Assembly (NCBI GenBank): GCA_052390515.1
Contig: JBQTGV010000220.1
Coordinates: 1 to 16,777, forward strand
Direction of reading: 5' to 3'
Origin: Candidatus Eiseniibacteriota bacterium
GTDB taxonomy: Bacteria; ARS69
Length of the DNA: 16,777 nt
Shown here: piece by piece, positions 1,827 to 7,823 of the stretch
Layout: each line of letters starts with the position of its first letter
Numbering within the stretch: the first letter of the stretch is position 1
The notes under the pieces: generated by a model
What the model was told of the DNA's origin: nothing
The model's input: the letters and a program-made list of their open reading frames with translations, nothing else
Databases searched by the model: none
Program-made: the position numbers and the translations under genes

Positions 1827-4124
1827 TCAGAGATCGACGTTGCGGAGCCGCAGGGAATTGGCGATGACCGAGACCGACGAGAGGCTCATCGCGGCCGCGG
1901 CGAACATGGGTCCGAGCAGGATGCCGAACGCGGGATAGAGGACGCCGGCCGCGACCGGAACGCCCGCCGCGTTGTAGAGGAAGGCGAAGAGCAGGTTCTG
2001 GCGGATGGTCGCCATGGTCGCGCGGCTGAGCTCCCGCGCGCGCACGATGCCGCGCAGATCGCCCTTCACCAGCGTCACGCCGGCGCTCTCGACGGCGACG
2101 TCGGTTCCGGTGCCCATGGCGATTCCGACGTCGGCAGTGGCGAGCGCGGGCGCGTCGTTGACGCCGTCGCCCGCCATCGCGACGATCCGTCCGCTCTCCT
2201 GGAGCTCCTTCACCTTCGCGGCCTTCTCATCGGGGAGGAGCCCGGCGACGACCTCGTCGATTCCGAGACGGCGAGCCACCGCGTCGGCGGTCACGCGGTG
2301 GTCACCGGTGAGCATGACGAGGCGCAGCCCGGCGGCGTGAAGCGCCGCGACCGCTTCCGCCGCCCCCGCCTTGACCGGATCGGCGGCCACGAGGTACCCG
2401 GCCGCCTCCCCGCCGACGGCGGCGAACAGCACCGAACGGCCGTCCGCGCGCCAGGCCTCGGCACGGGCGGCGAGGCGCGACGCGTCGACGCCGGACTCCT
2501 CCAGGAAACGCCGGGTGCCGAGCAGCACGCGCCGTCCGTCGACGAAGCCGGTCACTCCGCGCCCGGGAAGCGTGCGCACGGCCCCGGCCTCGGTCCGTGG
2601 CACTCCGCGGCTCTCCGCTGCGGCGACGACGGCGGCCGCCAGCGGATGCTCGCTGCCGCGCTCGACCGCGGCCGCCACGCGCAGCAGCTTCTCTTCGCTC
2701 AGGGTGTCCGACTCGATCCGCTCGAGCACCGGCCGTCCCTCGGTCAGCGTTCCAGTCTTGTCCAGCGCGAGGATCTCCACGGAGCGCAGCGTCTCGATGG
2801 CCTCGGCGTCCCGGAAGAGCACGCCGGCCCTCGCGCCACGGCCCGCCGCCACCGTGACGGCCATCGGCGTGGCCAGACCGAGGGCACACGGACAGGCGAT
2901 GATCAGCACGGCGACGGCGTTCACCAGGGCGAAGGCCAGACGGGGCGACGGTCCGAAGAGCGCCCAGAGTACGAACGCCGCCGCCGCGACGGCGACGACC
3001 GCGGGGACGAACCAGGCCGAGACCGCGTCCGCCAGCCGCTGCACCGGCGCGCGGCTGCGCTGCGCATCGGCCACCATCTGCACGATGCGGGCGAGGAGGG
3101 TGTCCCGGCCGACGCGCTCCGCGCGCATGGTGAGCGGGCCGTTGCCGTTGAGCGTCGCGCCGATGAGCCGGTCCCCGGCACCTTTCTCGACGGGGATGGG
3201 CTCGCCGGTGACGATGGACTCGTCCACCGAGCTCGTTCCCTCGAGCACGATGCCGTCGACGGGGACCTTCTCTCCCGGACGGACGCGGAGCCGATCGCCG
3301 GCGGCGACGTGCTCGAGCGGCACGTCCGACTCGGAGCCGTCCGCCTCGATGCGTCGCGCCGACTTCGGAGCGAGGCCGAGGAGCTCGCGGATGGCGGCGC
3401 CGGTGCGGCCGCGCGCACGCAACTCCAGCACCTGTCCAAGCAGCACGAGGGTGACGATGACCGCCGCCGACTCGAAGTAGACCGGCACCAGTCCGTCGTG
3501 TCCGCGGAACGAAGCGGGGAAAGCCACCGGGCGCAACGTGGCGAAGACGCTGTAGAGGTAGGCGGTTCCGGTGCCGAGCCCGATCAGCGTGAACATGTTG
3601 GGGCTCTGTCGGAGCACCGACGTCCAGGCCCGCTGGAAGAACGGAAGCCCGCCCCACAGGACGACGGGCGTCGCCAGGGCGAGCTCGAGCCAGCGTAGCG
3701 CACCATCCGCGGAGTGTCCGAGTCCCATGGCGACGACGACGAGCGGCGCGGTGAGGACCGCGCAGACTACGAAGCGGCGACCCATGTCGGCGAGCTCCGG
3801 GTCGTCGACCGGCTCCGCAGTGATCTCCATGGGCTCGAGCGCCATTCCGCACTTCGGGCAGCTGCCCGGGCCGACCTGCCGGACCTCCGGATGCATAGGG
3901 CAGGTGTAGACGGCGCCGGGAACGGCTGGTTCGTCGCGCCCGCCCGGAGTCGTTCCCGCCGGGAGAGCCCCTGCCGCCGCCAGGTACTTCGCCGGGTCCT
4001 TCGCGAAACGTTCCCGGCATGCCTCGCAGCAGAACCGGTACGTCGTCCCCGCGTGCACGTGGGACGGAGCCGCCTCCGACGTCACGGTCATGCCGCACAC
4101 GGGATCGATGCTGGGTTCGATCAT
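1827..4124 (-). CDS. copA: Copper(I)/silver-translocating P1B-1 ATPase with N-terminal YHS and heavy-metal-binding (CPMHP) domains
   Basis: TGEP actuator motif, transmembrane CPC, DKTGT phosphorylation site, [15 protein letters not shown], and the YN and MSLSS motifs of P1B-1 pumps. The N-terminus has [14 protein letters not shown] (YHS) and YTCPMHP..CPKCGM. Start re-called to ATG 4124 (765 aa) because the 49 extra codons run across the divergent promoter region. Confidence 0.95.
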
Positions 4125-4129
4125 GGAGC

Positions 4130-4160
4130 CATCTATGCGGCGCACGAGAGATCGCGTCAA
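4130..4160 (-). promoter_or_regulatory. Candidate sigma70 promoter of copA
   Basis: The minus strand reads TTGACG (4160-4155), then 17-19 nt, then a weak -10 region CATAGATG a few nt before ATG 4124. No SD is visible. Confidence 0.4.
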
Positions 4161-4222
4161 CGGCTGGCGCGTCCGGGCGCCCGCTGCGGGGCAGACCGCG
4201 AAGGCGCGTGACCGCTCCCTCG

Positions 4223-4264
4223 TGCTAGATTGACTGCTTCCACCCACAACGGCCGAGTGGAGGT
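4223..4264 (+). promoter_or_regulatory. Extended -10 promoter and RBS of the VOC gene
   Basis: TG-C-TAGATT at 4223-4231. GGAGGT at 4259-4264, 5 nt before ATG 4270. Confidence 0.55.
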
Positions 4265-4269
4265 TCGCC

Positions 4270-4629
4270 ATGGGTCAGCCCGTCGTGCACTGGGAGTTCT
4301 GGTCCGAGGACCCGGAGAAGGTTTCGAGCTTCTACAAGAAGGTGTTCGGCTGGGAGATCCGCCACATCCCGGAGATGAACTACCGCCTGGTCGAGACCGG
4401 CGGGACGGGAGGAATCAACGGCGGGATCATGACGCCGCAGAAGGGGCCGTGGCCTGGGAAGATGGCGTTCTACATCGACGTCGACGACATCGAGGCGTTC
4501 GCGGGGAAGATACGGGAAGCAGGCGGGGAGATCGTCGTCGACAAGGTGGACGTTCCGGGGGTGGGACAGTTCGCCCTGTTCGAGGATCCGGAAGGACGGG
4601 TGCTGGGGATGTGGAAGCAGCGGAAGTGA
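4270..4629 (+). CDS. VOC / glyoxalase-bleomycin resistance family protein
   Basis: 119 aa with [59 protein letters not shown], a typical VOC-fold pattern. Strong SD. Confidence 0.9.
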
Positions 4630-4700
4630 GTTCGGCGGAAGGCCCTTGCGCCCCGGTGCTCGTTTCCCCATCAGGACACCGCGTCTTCCGTGCCGGCCGG

Positions 4701-4749
4701 TTGACCCGGCGTGCGTCGAAGCCGATAATGGTTGGGTCGAATCGGAGGT
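4701..4749 (+). promoter_or_regulatory. Sigma70 promoter and RBS for the leader ORF plus efflux operon
   Basis: TTGACC (4701-4706), 17 nt, GATAAT (4724-4729). SD GGAGGT at 4744-4749, 7 nt before GTG 4757. Confidence 0.7.
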
Positions 4750-4756
4750 CGGTCGA

Positions 4757-5161
4757 GTGTTCTCGAAGGCGTTTCGCGTGCTGGCGGCACTCCTGGTCGC
4801 CGTGCCCCTCGGGGTCGGAGGCCTGTGCTGCTGCCTCCTCGGCGCCCCCGACGCGCATCGCCACGCGGCCGCCCCCACCGCCCTCGCGCCCTGCTGCGCC
4901 GACGAGAACACGCCGGCGGCACCTCGGCCCGGCCCCGCGGACGACGAGGACTGCTCGTGCCCGTCCCGCGATGCCGGCGTGCTCGCCGCGTCGGTTCCGG
5001 CCGAGGGCGCGGCGCCGACCGCGCCGGCGTGCGTCGCCGTGACGGTGGTGCCGACGGTCGAGTCCATCCTGGCAGGTCCGGCCGGTCTGTCCGTCCGAAC
5101 GACGCCGTACCCGCCACCGAAGGTCCCGGCCTACCGGACGCTCTGCGCCATCCTCTGCTGA
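4757..5161 (+). CDS. Cys-rich, Pro-rich exported leader protein (134 aa), putative metal-responsive translational regulator (CutF/CruR/DUF2946-like architecture)
   Basis: Start re-called to GTG 4757 from the SD and promoter. It has an N-terminal hydrophobic signal/TM segment (MFSKAFRVLAALLVAVPLGVGGL), then CCC, HRH, CC and CSC, an Ala/Pro linker, and the C-terminus PYPPPKVPAYRTLCAILC. It is the first gene before tolC-cusB-cusA. Confidence 0.7.
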   Translation: MFSKAFRVLAALLVAVPLGVGGLCCCLLGAPDAHRHAAAPTALAPCCADENTPAAPRPGPADDEDCSCPSRDAGVLAASVPAEGAAPTAPACVAVTVVPTVESILAGPAGLSVRTTPYPPPKVPAYRTLCAILC

Positions 5162-5163
5162 TC

Positions 5164-5229
5164 CTCCTTTCCGTGAAGCACTGACGCGGCGGGGCGAAGT
5201 ACGCCCTGCCGCTCCCGAACGGAAGGGAG
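5164..5229 (+). promoter_or_regulatory. RBS-sequestering nested stem-loop between the leader ORF and the TolC-family gene
   Basis: Outer stem CTCCTTTCCGT (5164-5174) pairs with ACGGAAGGGAG (5219-5229): 11 bp with one G:U, covering the SD. Inner stem GCGGCGGGGCG (5186-5196) pairs with CGCCCTGCCGC (5202-5212): 11 bp with one G:U, loop AAGTA. Confidence 0.75.
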
Positions 5230-5235
5230 TTCCTC

Positions 5236-6513
5236 ATGAGATCGCTTGCCATGCTGTTCGTCGCGCCGTCGTGCGCTCTCCTCGTCTTGCTGGCGGGAGC
5301 GCGAGCGGCGTGCGCTCCGGCCGCCGAGGGCGACACGCTCGACCTGCAGGGCCTGCTGCGAGAGGCCGTGGCGAATCATCCGGAGGCCTCTCGCGCACGT
5401 GCTGCCGCCCGGGCGGAGGAGGAGCGAGTGCCGGCGGCCGGCGCGCTGGAGAACCCCGTTCTGGAGCTCGCGCTCGACGAGCGGCCGTTCGACGGGAGCC
5501 GCGCCGGTCAGCGGCAGATCGGCCTCTCACAGGCGGTCCCGTTCCCGGGCAAGCGCGGGAGGCGGACCGAGGCGGCCCGCCACCAGGCCGACGCCGCACG
5601 CGAAGCGGCGCATGCGGTGGAGCGCACGATCATCGCCGAAGTGAAGGTTGCCTACTGGGAGCTGTTCCTGCAGGAGAACCGTACCGCGATCCTCCGCGAG
5701 AGCCGCACGACGCTGTCCGACGTGGTGGCTTCGGCGCGCGCCCGGTACGAGACCGGCCTGGGCGGACAGCAGGAGCTGCTCCTCGCGATGGTGGAAGCCG
5801 GCAAGCTCGACGGCGAGATCCTCCACGGCGAGGCGGTCACGTCCGCCGCTCGATCGCAACTGAACCTTCTCGTGGGGCGCGATGCCGAGGCTCCGCTCGG
5901 TCGGGCCGTGGTCGATTCGCTCACGCCGTTCGATGCACGTCTCGAGGATCTCGTCGCGGCAGCCCGTGACACGCACCCGTCGGTGCGCGCGGCGGAGGGA
6001 GAAGCGGCCGCTGCCGCCGCGGAAACTCGTCTCGCGGCCACCGCCGCGCGACCGGACTTCGAGCTCGGCGGAATGTACATGCAGATGCCGGGGGAGTCGG
6101 ACGAGTGGCGGGCGTCGCTGGGAGTCACCCTTCCCGCCTGGAAGGGGCGAAAGGAGGATGCCGCCGCGCGGGAGGCCGCTCACCGTCACGAGGCGGCGCT
6201 CGGCGCGCTCGACGCGGAGCGCCTGCGCGCGGCCGCCTCCGTCGAGGAGCAGTACGCGCACGTCGCGTCCGAGCGGCAGATCGTGGAGCTGTATCGCCGC
6301 GAGATCCTGCCGCAGGCGGAGCTCGCCTACCGCAGCGCCCGGACCGGCTATCTCGCCGGCCGCGAGACGTTCCTCGTGCTGCTCGAGGCGGTGCGAACGA
6401 GCCTCGAGCTCCGCGAGTCCTACTACGAGTACTTCGCCGACTCGGAGATGCACCTCGCCTGGCTCGAGCAGGCGGTAGGTCAGGATCTCGTTCCATGGGA
6501 GGTGGCGCCATGA
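5236..6513 (+). CDS. TolC-family outer membrane efflux protein (CusC/CzcC role)
   Basis: Signal peptide and two OEP-like repeats (ANHPE..LENP..LSQAVPFPGKRG; DTHPSV..RPDF..VTLPAW; AYRSA..Y..G..FL.LL). First structural gene of an RND operon. Confidence 0.9.
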   Translation: MRSLAMLFVAPSCALLVLLAGARAACAPAAEGDTLDLQGLLREAVANHPEASRARAAARAEEERVPAAGALENPVLELALDERPFDGSRAGQRQIGLSQAVPFPGKRGRRTEAARHQADAAREAAHAVERTIIAEVKVAYWELFLQENRTAILRESRTTLSDVVASARARYETGLGGQQELLLAMVEAGKLDGEILHGEAVTSAARSQLNLLVGRDAEAPLGRAVVDSLTPFDARLEDLVAAARDTHPSVRAAEGEAAAAAAETRLAATAARPDFELGGMYMQMPGESDEWRASLGVTLPAWKGRKEDAAAREAAHRHEAALGALDAERLRAAASVEEQYAHVASERQIVELYRREILPQAELAYRSARTGYLAGRETFLVLLEAVRTSLELRESYYEYFADSEMHLAWLEQAVGQDLVPWEVAP

Positions 6514-7823
6514 AGCGCACCGTGCTCGTCGCGCTCCTCGCGACGGCCCTCGCCCTCTTCGCCCTGACGGCCTGCTCGCCGCGTGAGGGGAAGGGCGATG
6601 CTTCGCGGGAAGAGACCTGGTTCTGCCCCATGCACCCGCAGGTCATCTCCGACCGACCGGGAGAGTGCCCGATCTGCCACATGAGTCTCGTCCCGGCGAC
6701 CGAGGCGGGGACGGACGGGGCGATGAGCGCGCACGTCGGCGAGCTCGAGACCGGTGCCGGTGCGCCCGCGGGTCACGCCCCGATCTCGATCAGCGCCGAG
6801 AAGGCGCGCCTCATCGGAATGCGCTGGGAGGTCGTGACGCGCGCTCCGTTCGCCGCTCCCATCCGGACGGTCGGCCGCATCGAGTTCGACGAGAGGCGCG
6901 TCCACCACGTACACACGCGCTACGAGGGGTACGTCGATCACGTCTTCGCGGATTTCGGCGGGAAGTTCGTCCGCAAGGGTGAACCGCTCGCGTCGATCTA
7001 CAGCCCGGAGCTCCTGACCACGCAGGAGGAGTACCTGCTCGCGCTGGCGGCCGCCCGTGACGCCGCGGCCCGCGATGGATCCGTGCCACGCGCCGCCCAG
7101 GAGCTGGTCGACGCCGCGAAGCGCCGGCTGCTCCTCTGGGAGGTGGACCCCGCCGAGATCGAGGAGCTGGAGCGGACCGGCAAGCCGCTGGAGACGCTGC
7201 GCATCTACGCGCCCATCTCGGGAGTGGTGACCGAGCGCACCGCGTATCACGGCATGAAGGTCGGTCCCGAGGACACGCTCTTCGATCTGGCCGACCTGTC
7301 CCGCGTGTGGGTGATCGCGGACGTGTACGAGTACGAGCTGCCCCGCGTCGCGGTGGGGCAGGAGGGCATGATGACGCTGCCCTACTGGCCGGGCCGCATT
7401 TGGACCGGTGCCGTCGGGTACATCTTCCCCACGGTCGACGAGAAGGCTCGAACGGTGAAGGTGCGCCTCGAGTTCGAGAACGCGGGCGGAGATCTCAAAC
7501 CCGGGATGTTCGCCGACGTCGTCCTTTCCGGCCGTTCCGCGACGGCACTCTCCGTTCCCGAGGACGCGGTGCTGGACAGCGGCACGCGCAAGCTCGTCTT
7601 CGTGCGAACCGGGGAGGAGAGGCTCGAGCCGCGGGAGGTGGTGACCGGAGTGCGGGCCGGCGGCCGCATGGAGATCCTCCAAGGCGTCACCGAGGGGGAT
7701 TCCGTGGCGCTCGGGGCGAACTTCCTGCTCGACTCCGAGTCCCGCTTGCGGGCGGCCGTGTCGTCGGCGTCGGGAGGCGCCACCAGGCCCGTCGATGATC
7801 ACGCCGGGCACGGCCGGCCATGA
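6510..7823 (+). CDS. cusB: Heavy-metal efflux RND periplasmic adaptor (CusB family) with lipobox and N-terminal CPMHP metal-binding domain
   Basis: The real start ATG 6510 overlaps the upstream stop (ATGA) and has SD GGAGGT. MKR-hydrophobic-LTAC lipoprotein signal, WFCPMHP..CPICHMSLVP, IYSPEL..QEEYL, APISGVV, ADLSRVWV.ADVYE, LKPGMFA and NFLLDSESRL. 437 aa. Confidence 0.92.
   Translation: MKRTVLVALLATALALFALTACSPREGKGDASREETWFCPMHPQVISDRPGECPICHMSLVPATEAGTDGAMSAHVGELETGAGAPAGHAPISISAEKARLIGMRWEVVTRAPFAAPIRTVGRIEFDERRVHHVHTRYEGYVDHVFADFGGKFVRKGEPLASIYSPELLTTQEEYLLALAAARDAAARDGSVPRAAQELVDAAKRRLLLWEVDPAEIEELERTGKPLETLRIYAPISGVVTERTAYHGMKVGPEDTLFDLADLSRVWVIADVYEYELPRVAVGQEGMMTLPYWPGRIWTGAVGYIFPTVDEKARTVKVRLEFENAGGDLKPGMFADVVLSGRSATALSVPEDAVLDSGTRKLVFVRTGEERLEPREVVTGVRAGGRMEILQGVTEGDSVALGANFLLDSESRLRAAVSSASGGATRPVDDHAGHGRP

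Follow-up and report, generated by a model that had tools for sequence, protein, structure and literature searches.

A stop-adjacent hairpin predicted to mask the ribosome-binding site of a heavy-metal efflux operon in Candidatus Eiseniibacteriota

Hairpins that mask a Shine-Dalgarno sequence (SD) and are opened by a ribosome translating the gene upstream are a known device, and the work on CutF published from 2023 to 2025 extends it to copper sensing outside the cytoplasm. CutF, of the cutFOG locus of Rhodobacter capsulatus, is described as a DUF2946 protein of about 118 residues that carries a Sec signal, the motif CxxxC and, at its C-terminus, PPP (P109EPEGPPPRL118; PMC9973294; 10.1101/2025.02.05.636593). 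According to PMC9973294, the anti-SD of a stem-loop that comes after CutF shields the SD of cutO, and CutF becomes dispensable when this anti-SD is mutated; the proposal is that copper causes the nascent CutF chain to stall, whereupon the stem is melted by the ribosome (PMC9973294; 10.1101/2025.02.05.636593). The same report defines CutF-like proteins by a length below 150 residues, a PP in the last 15 residues, an N-terminal signal and a gene downstream that shares their strand, and gives genes for outer-membrane efflux proteins (OEP) of resistance-nodulation-division (RND) metal pumps as their commonest neighbours (PMC9973294). The CutF-type cases dissected in these two sources act on a multicopper oxidase (CutF) and a TonB-type importer (CruR) (PMC9973294; 10.1101/2025.02.05.636593). 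More generally, a 2025 review of translational coupling sets out two models, in one of which, RNA unfolding, the upstream ribosome disrupts a structure over the downstream ribosome-binding site (RBS), with rpmI-rplT, MS2 coat-lysis and f1 genes VII-IX as examples (PMC12548453). Here we analyze a locus of related layout in a Candidatus Eiseniibacteriota genome (GCA_052390515.1), in the 16,777 nucleotides (nt) of contig JBQTGV010000220.1 (hereafter, the window), where the open reading frame of a 134-residue cysteine-rich protein (ORF134) is followed by a hairpin whose 5' arm lies next to the ORF134 stop codon and whose 3' arm contains the SD of an OEP gene.

The locus closely follows the operational description of CutF-like genes. 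ORF134 is 134 residues long, has a PP within its last 15 residues, and is separated by a 74-nt spacer from OEP, CusB-like and CusA-like genes that lie on the same strand. What is new, judging from the comparisons below, is that a CutF-like layout goes together with a protein family not detectably related to DUF2946 and with a differing stall geometry. The layout is linked here to a pump, in a lineage of which hardly any genomes have been sampled (12 in the collection searched).

The spacer between ORF134 and the OEP gene is predicted to fold into an outer stem enclosing an inner one (Table 1). A first-pass annotation of the window had proposed an anti-SD beginning 2 nt after the stop codon, which pairs over 11 base pairs (bp) with the SD region and encloses a second stem of 11 bp, and RNAfold placed all of these elements at the same coordinates. 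The outer stem consists of 10 Watson-Crick pairs and one G-U pair (the eleventh), its arms being 91% complementary and 44 nt apart, and these arms are the sole inverted repeat reported within 5100-5300. The fold of 5159-5240 has an energy of -42.4 kcal/mol (z = -5.16), which was reached by 0 of 200 dinucleotide shuffles, and its two stems, interrupted by an internal loop, together stack to about 24 bp. When the wider segment 5130-5260 was folded, as had been suggested as a check, the outer stem was retained (z = -3.77) and the SD was not left open. The 3' arm ACGGAAGGGAG is followed by TTCCTC and then by ATG 5236-5238, with the SD GGGAG 6 nt 5' of the ATG. In the predicted fold the SD nucleotides are paired with the stop-proximal arm at a probability of about 1.0, in agreement with the earlier claim that the hairpin locks this site. 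The opposite strand folds more weakly (-36.9 kcal/mol, z = -2.54), which fits an RNA with G-U pairs that is read from the forward strand. CUCCUUUC of the 5' arm is also found in the 16S rRNA of a relative (G004), in its 3' tail; the 16S end was taken from this relative, and the motif search did not find the 16S 3' end of the host genome (G000) in its assembly.

Other classes of element were considered for the same segment and set aside. A palindromic repeat element was ruled out because the hairpin is present once in the 4.27-Mb assembly. The test for an intrinsic terminator failed, as no terminator-like site was detected in 4200-5400 and the inner stem has no U-tract, being followed by UCCCGAACGG. 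A riboswitch reading was dropped because no Rfam 15 covariance model matched 4200-5400 on either strand at E ≤ 1.

The arrangement of stop codon, hairpin and SD is conserved in relatives. The phylum-level group comprises 12 genomes in the collection searched, 9 of which carry ORF134 and represent 7 sequence lineages. An OEP-type reading frame lies 3' of ORF134 in all nine loci, across spacers of 74, 158, 97, 97, 117, 117, 96, 93 and 128 nt. The closing stem was found in the minimum-energy fold of every spacer (9/9), with its 5' arm starting -2 to +3 nt from the stop codon. In eight of the nine loci (6 of 7 lineages) the SD lies inside the 3' arm and is paired with the stop-proximal arm at a probability of about 1.0; the partners of the SD core are nt 3-7 after the stop in the window and fall within nt 2-12 in 8/9 loci. 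The interior hairpins of the spacers differ in number and sequence between loci.

The arms themselves vary by lineage (e.g., CUCCUUUCCGU, UCCUCUCUCGA, CUUCUUCUUCG and CUCUCUUCUCGA). When the arms were anchored on the SD, two-sided changes were found at seven stem positions (p4-p10), each of them paired in at least four of six lineages. MAFFT did not align the arms of the nine spacers, and the pair tables were scripted instead, with no covariance model. Among the 7 lineage representatives, the observed sum for cognate arms was reached by 3 of 5040 permutations and by 0 of 1854 derangements. The covariation in homologous spacers that the first-pass annotation had named as a check is present in the predicted folds. 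Shuffled versions of the 5' arm reached the energy of the real duplex in 0 to 47 of 1000 trials in eight loci, and in 427 of 1000 at the ninth (G003). The mean arm duplex was -21.7 kcal/mol for cognate arms and -15.4 kcal/mol for 68 non-cognate pairs. As for the genomes without ORF134, an OEP search at E ≤ 1e-20 gave nothing in two (G005 and G009), and in G011 only a paralogue of 38% identity, which heads its own unit and has a histidine kinase gene in divergent orientation beside it; these three thus offered no pump orthologue lacking ORF134. Additional loci were left unused: a metagenome scan gave one that is cut by the contig end 50 nt after the ORF stop, and a further scan of genome collections gave two, an apparent duplicate of G002 and a weak partial match (residues 34-72).

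The effect of ribosome position on the hairpin was modelled by deleting the mRNA that a ribosome covers, to about 15 nt past the first P-site nucleotide, which is the reach known from toeprinting. Without a ribosome, the predicted cost of opening -18 to +12 around the AUG has a mean of 19.4 kcal/mol (range 14.8-28.2 kcal/mol). Placing the stop codon in the A site brought the mean cost down to 11.7 kcal/mol, the drop being seen in eight of the nine loci, and raised the unpaired probability of the SD from 0.00-0.27 to about 0.2-0.8. A P site at the PP motif, 14 codons ahead of the stop, gave a cost of 20.6 kcal/mol, and one 5 codons ahead gave 19.8 kcal/mol. In the model, opening is aided solely by a ribosome that stands on the stop or very close to it, and the barrier is lowered in part. 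The first-pass annotation had argued that a ribosome arrested at PPP would not free the SD, which the modelled cost supports (20.6 vs 19.4 kcal/mol), and that one at the stop would do so; the latter holds for the direction of the change, whereas the barrier is only partly removed.

Given these structural and modelled patterns, we consider it fairly probable that the locus operates by translational coupling through RNA unfolding, with translation of the pump tied to that of ORF134. ORF134 would be transcribed from the conserved promoter just 5' of it. On ribosome-free mRNA, the closing stem would pair the anti-SD with the OEP SD, and the RBS of the efflux genes would be shut. A ribosome at the ORF134 stop would cover and unwind the first 6-10 nt after the stop, which hold the SD core, and the freed site could then be taken by a new 30S subunit or by the terminating ribosome, kept close by the remaining hairpin. 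ATGA overlaps of start and stop codons, which had also been pointed out in the first-pass annotation, are present at 6510-6513 (OEP/CusB-like) and 7820-7823 (CusB-like/CusA-like) and may carry the coupling on to the CusB-like and CusA-like genes; since they occur at both downstream genes, translation of the whole pump (OEP, CusB-like and CusA-like) would follow that of ORF134. Beyond the predicted structure, its conservation and covariation, the geometry and the gene identities, we infer an opening of the hairpin by ribosomes in vivo, on which the pump would depend.

Several results weigh against this coupling. The opening rests wholly on thermodynamic modelling, and the modelled terminating ribosome leaves about 12 kcal/mol, only part of the barrier being removed. 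In the genome of the window (G000), the SD has an unpaired probability of only 0.20 with a terminating ribosome and stays mostly paired because weaker local pairings take over. At G003 the SD lies outside the closing stem, which stops 22 nt short of the AUG, and a modelled terminating ribosome gives no gain. The pairs behind the two-sided changes were counted from each sequence's own predicted fold and are canonical by construction, and, since every pair sets a pyrimidine-rich arm against a purine-rich one, part of the non-cognate combinations match the cognate ones in stability. Re-initiation, as one of the two routes to the freed site, is also at odds with a synthetic E. coli operon in which a stable structure right after the stop reduced re-initiation (10.1101/2020.02.10.941153). 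Finally, similar stems are present in about 3% of comparable G+C-rich intervals of the same genome (G+C 70%): 42 of 1514 stop-to-SD-start intervals of at least 60 nt, the target locus included, have ten or more pairs of this kind and an SD that is paired at p ≥ 0.9, although this null is crude, many of the intervals not being real gene pairs. By this null, one such locus could be chance and nine could not. The single locus thus appears only moderately beyond chance, whereas conservation across relatives makes chance very unlikely.

ORF134 had been treated as a leader in the first-pass annotation, which is not borne out, as it encodes a conserved 134-residue protein with an invariant cysteine pattern. 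An index of 5.8 billion proteins contained five full-length relatives (42-62% identity), and a profile search of 1.84 billion cluster representatives gave 60 proteins at E ≤ 0.001, of which 38 reached E ≤ 1e-10; nearly all matches are 120-160 residues long. The protein has no Pfam (E ≤ 0.01) or NCBIfam family, and its profile had no match in 29 other sampled genomes outside the 12-genome group. The family alignment consisted of the window protein and 39 of the 60 matches, 6 short or partial rows and 15 of the weakest matches being omitted. It has, in this order, a hydrophobic N-terminus with PLGxGGLCCC, then CC, then CxCPxR[DE], an Ala/Pro linker of variable sequence, and P.PPK.PL[YF]RTL[SC]V.[LR]C as a conserved tail up to the stop. 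C24, C26, C66 and C68 are invariant in the 40 sequences, and C25, C46 and C47 are kept in at least 90%. At the N-terminus of ORF134, K4 and R7 precede a hydrophobic stretch of about 20 residues, which from sequence could equally be a cleaved signal or a membrane anchor. An AlphaFold2 model from the 40 sequences (mean pLDDT 61.9, pTM 0.21) has helices at 3-18 and 23-28 and was too weak for a fold search.

The tail of ORF134 itself follows PPPK.P.YRTLC..LC, with PPP 13 codons before the stop and C-A-I-L-C at the C-terminus, both as first annotated; P120-P121 are residues -15 and -14. PPP is not universal in the family: among the last 20 residues it is found in 25 of 40 members and PP in 34 of 40, and the terminal Cys is present in 31 of 40. 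Across the nine loci the tail codons vary synonymously at conserved residues, indicating that the tail is selected as protein. The middle proline of PPP is encoded by CCA or CCT in 4/4 lineages with Pro at this position (5114-5116 in the window; same column in L002, L008 and L009); in a crude gene set, CCA and CCT account for 2.9% and 4.8% of Pro codons, and the two for 25% at the middle of PPP genome-wide. As a signal, this codon choice is a weak hint, the lineages not being independent. The distance from CxC to the C-terminus is near constant (median 69, interquartile range 68-70, n = 39; the outlier of 101 is a mis-picked motif), whereas that from CCC to CxC varies from 25 to 58, and the linker is variable in sequence and has no confident structure in the AlphaFold2 model. 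A linker that varies in sequence at a fixed length fits a ruler that would keep the Cys motif on the far side of the membrane with the tail still inside the ribosome, and it would also fit an unrecognised fold.

Comparisons with DUF2946 (PF11162) gave no sequence relationship. None of the 40 family members matched it at E ≤ 0.1, a six-frame DUF2946 search of the 12 genomes of the lineage matched no ORF134 locus, and hhalign of the family profile against two DUF2946-like proteins gave a probability of about 1%, the comparison being made against single sequences and not a full DUF2946 alignment. The homologue search for the DUF2946-like protein returned the query only, with none at E ≤ 1e-5 in 201 genomes of its phylum. 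In a language-model feature search, one of the nearest named clusters (score 0.93) consists of DUF2946 members to 23%, which is a lead only. By these comparisons, ORF134 is not detectably a DUF2946 member. A separate observation was made in the relative G010, which has a canonical DUF2946-like gene of 103 residues (L024:1398-1800, - strand) with HGDC...CPVC motifs, ending in SRAPPIPA-stop. It is followed by an 85-nt spacer (-51 kcal/mol, z = -2.32) whose predicted closing stem takes in the stop and extends to the SD of the following gene, at the first G's of GGGAGGGAG, indicating that the textbook CutF geometry is also present in the ORF134 lineage.

These protein features bear on a regulated form of the coupling, in which ORF134 would be a CutF-like transmembrane metal sensor and copper or silver bound to its cysteines outside the cytoplasm would alter ribosome dwell near the end of the ORF, setting the opening of the hairpin; with the 16-residue tail in the exit tunnel, the stop codon would be the likeliest place for this dwell. 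The protein has the CutF-like parts by the definition of PMC9973294 (fewer than 150 residues, a hydrophobic N-terminus, Cys motifs, PP in the last 15, and a same-strand gene less than 100 nt downstream), and OEP genes are the commonest downstream neighbours of such genes in that report. The conservation of the tail as protein despite synonymous codon changes, the ruler-like constancy of the CxC-to-C-terminus distance against the variable linker and CCC-to-CxC spacing, and the partly DUF2946 cluster in the feature search (as a lead) also point this way. The position of the prolines does not: PPP lies 13 codons before the stop as opposed to 2 in CutF, a modelled stall there would miss the hairpin, and 15 of 40 members have no PPP in the last 20 residues. 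The DUF2946 searches (40 members, 12 genomes in six frames, hhalign) likewise gave no sequence match, and the conserved N-terminal and Cys motifs would fit equally well a stable metal-binding membrane protein co-produced with the pump. We know of no arrest motif that ends in Leu-Cys-stop. On balance we consider metal regulation of the coupling rather unlikely. In its fullest form, ORF134 would be the founder of a new class of transmembrane metal-sensing nascent chains with no detectable relation to DUF2946, the regulated step would be the dwell at the stop and not at the proline repeat, and the pump would be switched from outside the cytoplasm without a transcription factor, a proposal that we regard as unlikely. 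For this, the tail (P.PPK.PLYRTL.V.LC) would fill the exit tunnel when the ribosome is on the stop, the linker of about 69 residues would put CxC outside the membrane, and metal binding would change the release time and thus the time for which the anti-SD stays covered.

The hairpin could also act with no dependence on ORF134 translation, as an insulator that blocks the sliding of post-termination ribosomes and a fixed damper whose masked SD keeps the pump constantly low, with rare spontaneous opening. Stable structures under selection and centred about 9 nt after stops, enriched at spacers of at least 25 nt and associated with lower downstream expression, are described by Chemla et al. (10.1101/2020.02.10.941153), and here the spacer is 74 nt, the structure begins from 3 nt after the stop, and G003 has the stem without the SD. 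An insulator would account for the place next to the stop and a fixed damper for the masked SD. The 3' arm of an insulator need not be the SD, yet it contains the SD in 8/9 loci, and the anti-SD of a fixed damper need not abut the stop, yet its position is kept while spacers run from 74 to 158 nt; an opening cost of about 15-28 kcal/mol would, moreover, nearly silence the pump unless something opens the hairpin. We find this combination quite improbable. Intercistronic hairpins that set the stability of mRNA segments are known, as are RNase III cuts that unmask RBSs, and the outer and inner stems, stacked to about 24 bp with an internal loop, might form an element of RNA processing or stability. 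Through a cut (e.g., by RNase III) or a block to exonucleases, it would give ORF134 and the pump differing half-lives, and cleavage in the closing stem would free the SD. Such an element, which we regard as very unlikely, does not explain why the 5' arm is at the stop or why the 3' arm is the SD, and the interior hairpins are not conserved in number or sequence. A chance fold of G+C-rich intergenic sequence, or a factor-independent terminator or attenuator, is hardly credible: the 70% G+C of the genome and the similar stems in about 3% of its comparable intervals would allow a chance fold, but the stem is found in 9/9 loci with differing sequences, its z is -5.16 in the window, and neither a U-tract nor a terminator-like site was detected. 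Coupling by RNA unfolding is the reading that we prefer.

Judged by family membership, the operon is a CusCBA/CzcCBA-type heavy-metal efflux RND set led by ORF134 (Table 1). A promoter-like site was found only 5' of ORF134, with no terminator-like site in 4200-5400. The same site, as TTGACC-17-GATAnT, precedes the ORF134 homologue in 8/8 loci with enough upstream sequence, the ninth ending at a contig edge. At two of these loci (L003 and L004, of G008 and G001) the conserved -10-like hexamer ends only 6 nt before the assumed ATG of the ORF134 homologue; either the mRNA would be leaderless there or the true start would be the GTG 19 codons downstream. The OEP product matched the NCBIfam TolC and NodT models below their cut-offs, and the CusB-like protein scored 125.6 with TIGR01730 (cut-off 94.9).

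Table 1 Features of the ORF134 locus and adjoining genes in the window.
Feature	Position	Strand	Basis or remark
P-type ATPase with YHS and HMBD domains	1827-4271 (longest reading)	-	upstream, divergent
Glyoxalase/VOC-family gene, 119 residues	4270-4629	+	Pfam Glyoxalase E 1.4e-10; between ATPase and ORF134
Sigma-70-like promoter TTGACC-17-GATAAT, 5' of ORF134	4701-4729	+	10/12 matches; mean 0.0 sites in 50 shuffles
SD GGAGG of ORF134	4744-4748	+	8 nt before GTG 4757; read from sequence
ORF134, cysteine-rich protein, 134 residues	4757-5161	+	most plausible start GTG 4757; alignment of relatives
PPP codons CCG CCA CCG	5111-5119	+	13 codons between PPP and stop
ORF134 stop TGA	5159-5161	+	read from sequence
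5' arm, anti-SD CTCCTTTCCGT	5164-5174	+	begins 2 nt (TC) after stop; RNAfold and inverted-repeat search
Inner G+C-rich hairpin	5183-5214	+	11 bp 5186-5196/5202-5212, loop AAGUA; 2 extra pairs 5183-5184/5213-5214
3' arm ACGGAAGGGAG, contains SD GGGAG (5225-5229) of OEP gene	5219-5229	+	RNAfold and inverted-repeat search
Outer-membrane efflux protein gene (TolC/CusC-like), 425 residues	5236-6513	+	Pfam OEP E 8.1e-34
CusB/CzcB-like membrane fusion protein with heavy-metal-binding domain	6510-7823	+	HlyD_D23 E 1.4e-78; HMBD E 4.3e-12
CusA/CzcA-family heavy-metal RND transporter	7820-11077	+	TIGR00914 1081 bits (cut-off 701); ACR_tran

Upstream of the operon, the longest reading of the ATPase gene would start at 4271 and overlap the start of the VOC gene at 4270; the first domain match of the ATPase begins at residue 55, and its true start is therefore probably further in. 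Downstream, 11143-12879 (-) is an ORF of 578 residues with a thiol-activated cytolysin domain (E 3.1e-44) and a C-terminal Laminin_B, a pairing that is unusual for a metagenome-assembled environmental genome. A Ser/Thr protein kinase gene with a long TPR region (13002-15926, +) adjoins that of a PF07638-type ECF sigma factor (15901-16512, -).

The geometry of the ORF134 locus separates "stall at prolines" from "ribosome at stop", and its stem is backed by seven lineages. Together with a protein not detectably related to DUF2946, this makes it a clean system for asking which ribosome position opens such a switch, and one that can show whether the layout arose more than once. If the coupling is only constitutive, the locus is an ordinary example of a well-documented kind. 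Elsewhere in the genome of the window, on contigs C118 (5225-5320, -) and C147 (5468-5570, -), a CCUCC-type tract right after a stop pairs with the SD of the next plausible gene; these are candidates, and the stop-adjacent anti-SD device may be used elsewhere in G000.

Among the described systems, CutF is alike in being a small protein with Cys and Pro motifs and a hydrophobic N-terminus, in the anti-SD stem-loop over the SD of a copper-detoxification gene, and in having the translating ribosome as its proposed opener. It differs in its Cys pattern (CxxxC in CutF, CCC...CC...CxC in ORF134), in its target (a multicopper oxidase as opposed to an OEP/CusB/CusA pump), and in the place of its prolines, with PPP 2 residues before the stop in CutF, whereas in ORF134 13 codons separate PP(P) from the stop and a conserved tail comes after it. 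A stall at the prolines that reaches the stem, the defining geometry of CutF, fails for ORF134 in the model (20.6 vs 19.4 kcal/mol), and ORF134 has no DUF2946 match. Other CutF-like ORFs, i.e., CzcI 5' of czcCBA and the SilD and CusD labelled in a network figure, share with ORF134 a small Cys/His ORF directly upstream of an OEP-led RND metal operon (PMC9973294). As described in that report, CzcI is without the C-terminal proline motif (PMC9973294), and no sequence relationship of ORF134 to CzcI, SilD or CusD was detected. CruR-bfrG of Bordetella pertussis, with a DUF2946 ORF, is alike in that a copper-responsive ORF with a C-terminal proline motif exerts post-transcriptional control over a downstream metal-transport gene; it is unlike in its reported use of Rho-dependent termination over a 162-nt spacer, where copper relieves stalling and the signal peptide is reported as dispensable (10.1101/2025.02.05.636593), whereas the ORF134 locus has an SD-masking stem.

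SecM-secA, MifM-yidC2 and VemP-secDF2 likewise have a signal for export or insertion at the N-terminus, a C-terminal segment that is conserved, and a stem that masks the SD of the regulated gene (10.1101/2025.02.05.636593). The ORF134 target differs in being an OEP efflux protein and not a Sec/YidC component, and ORF134 contains no known arrest motif. A parallel in spacing among the classical cases of coupling is rpmI-rplT, where the distance, 52 nt as compared with 74 nt at ORF134, is likewise roomy enough for a second ribosome (PMC12548453). Unlike in classical coupling, the ORF134 anti-SD lies wholly in the spacer, abutting the stop, and the upstream gene encodes a metal-motif membrane protein with no known family. 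The elements named RTS by Chemla et al. (10.1101/2020.02.10.941153) are alike in having a stable structure a few nt after the stop and a spacer of more than 25 nt; they are described there as insulators and not defined by SD pairing, whereas in the ORF134 loci the 3' arm is the SD in eight of nine.

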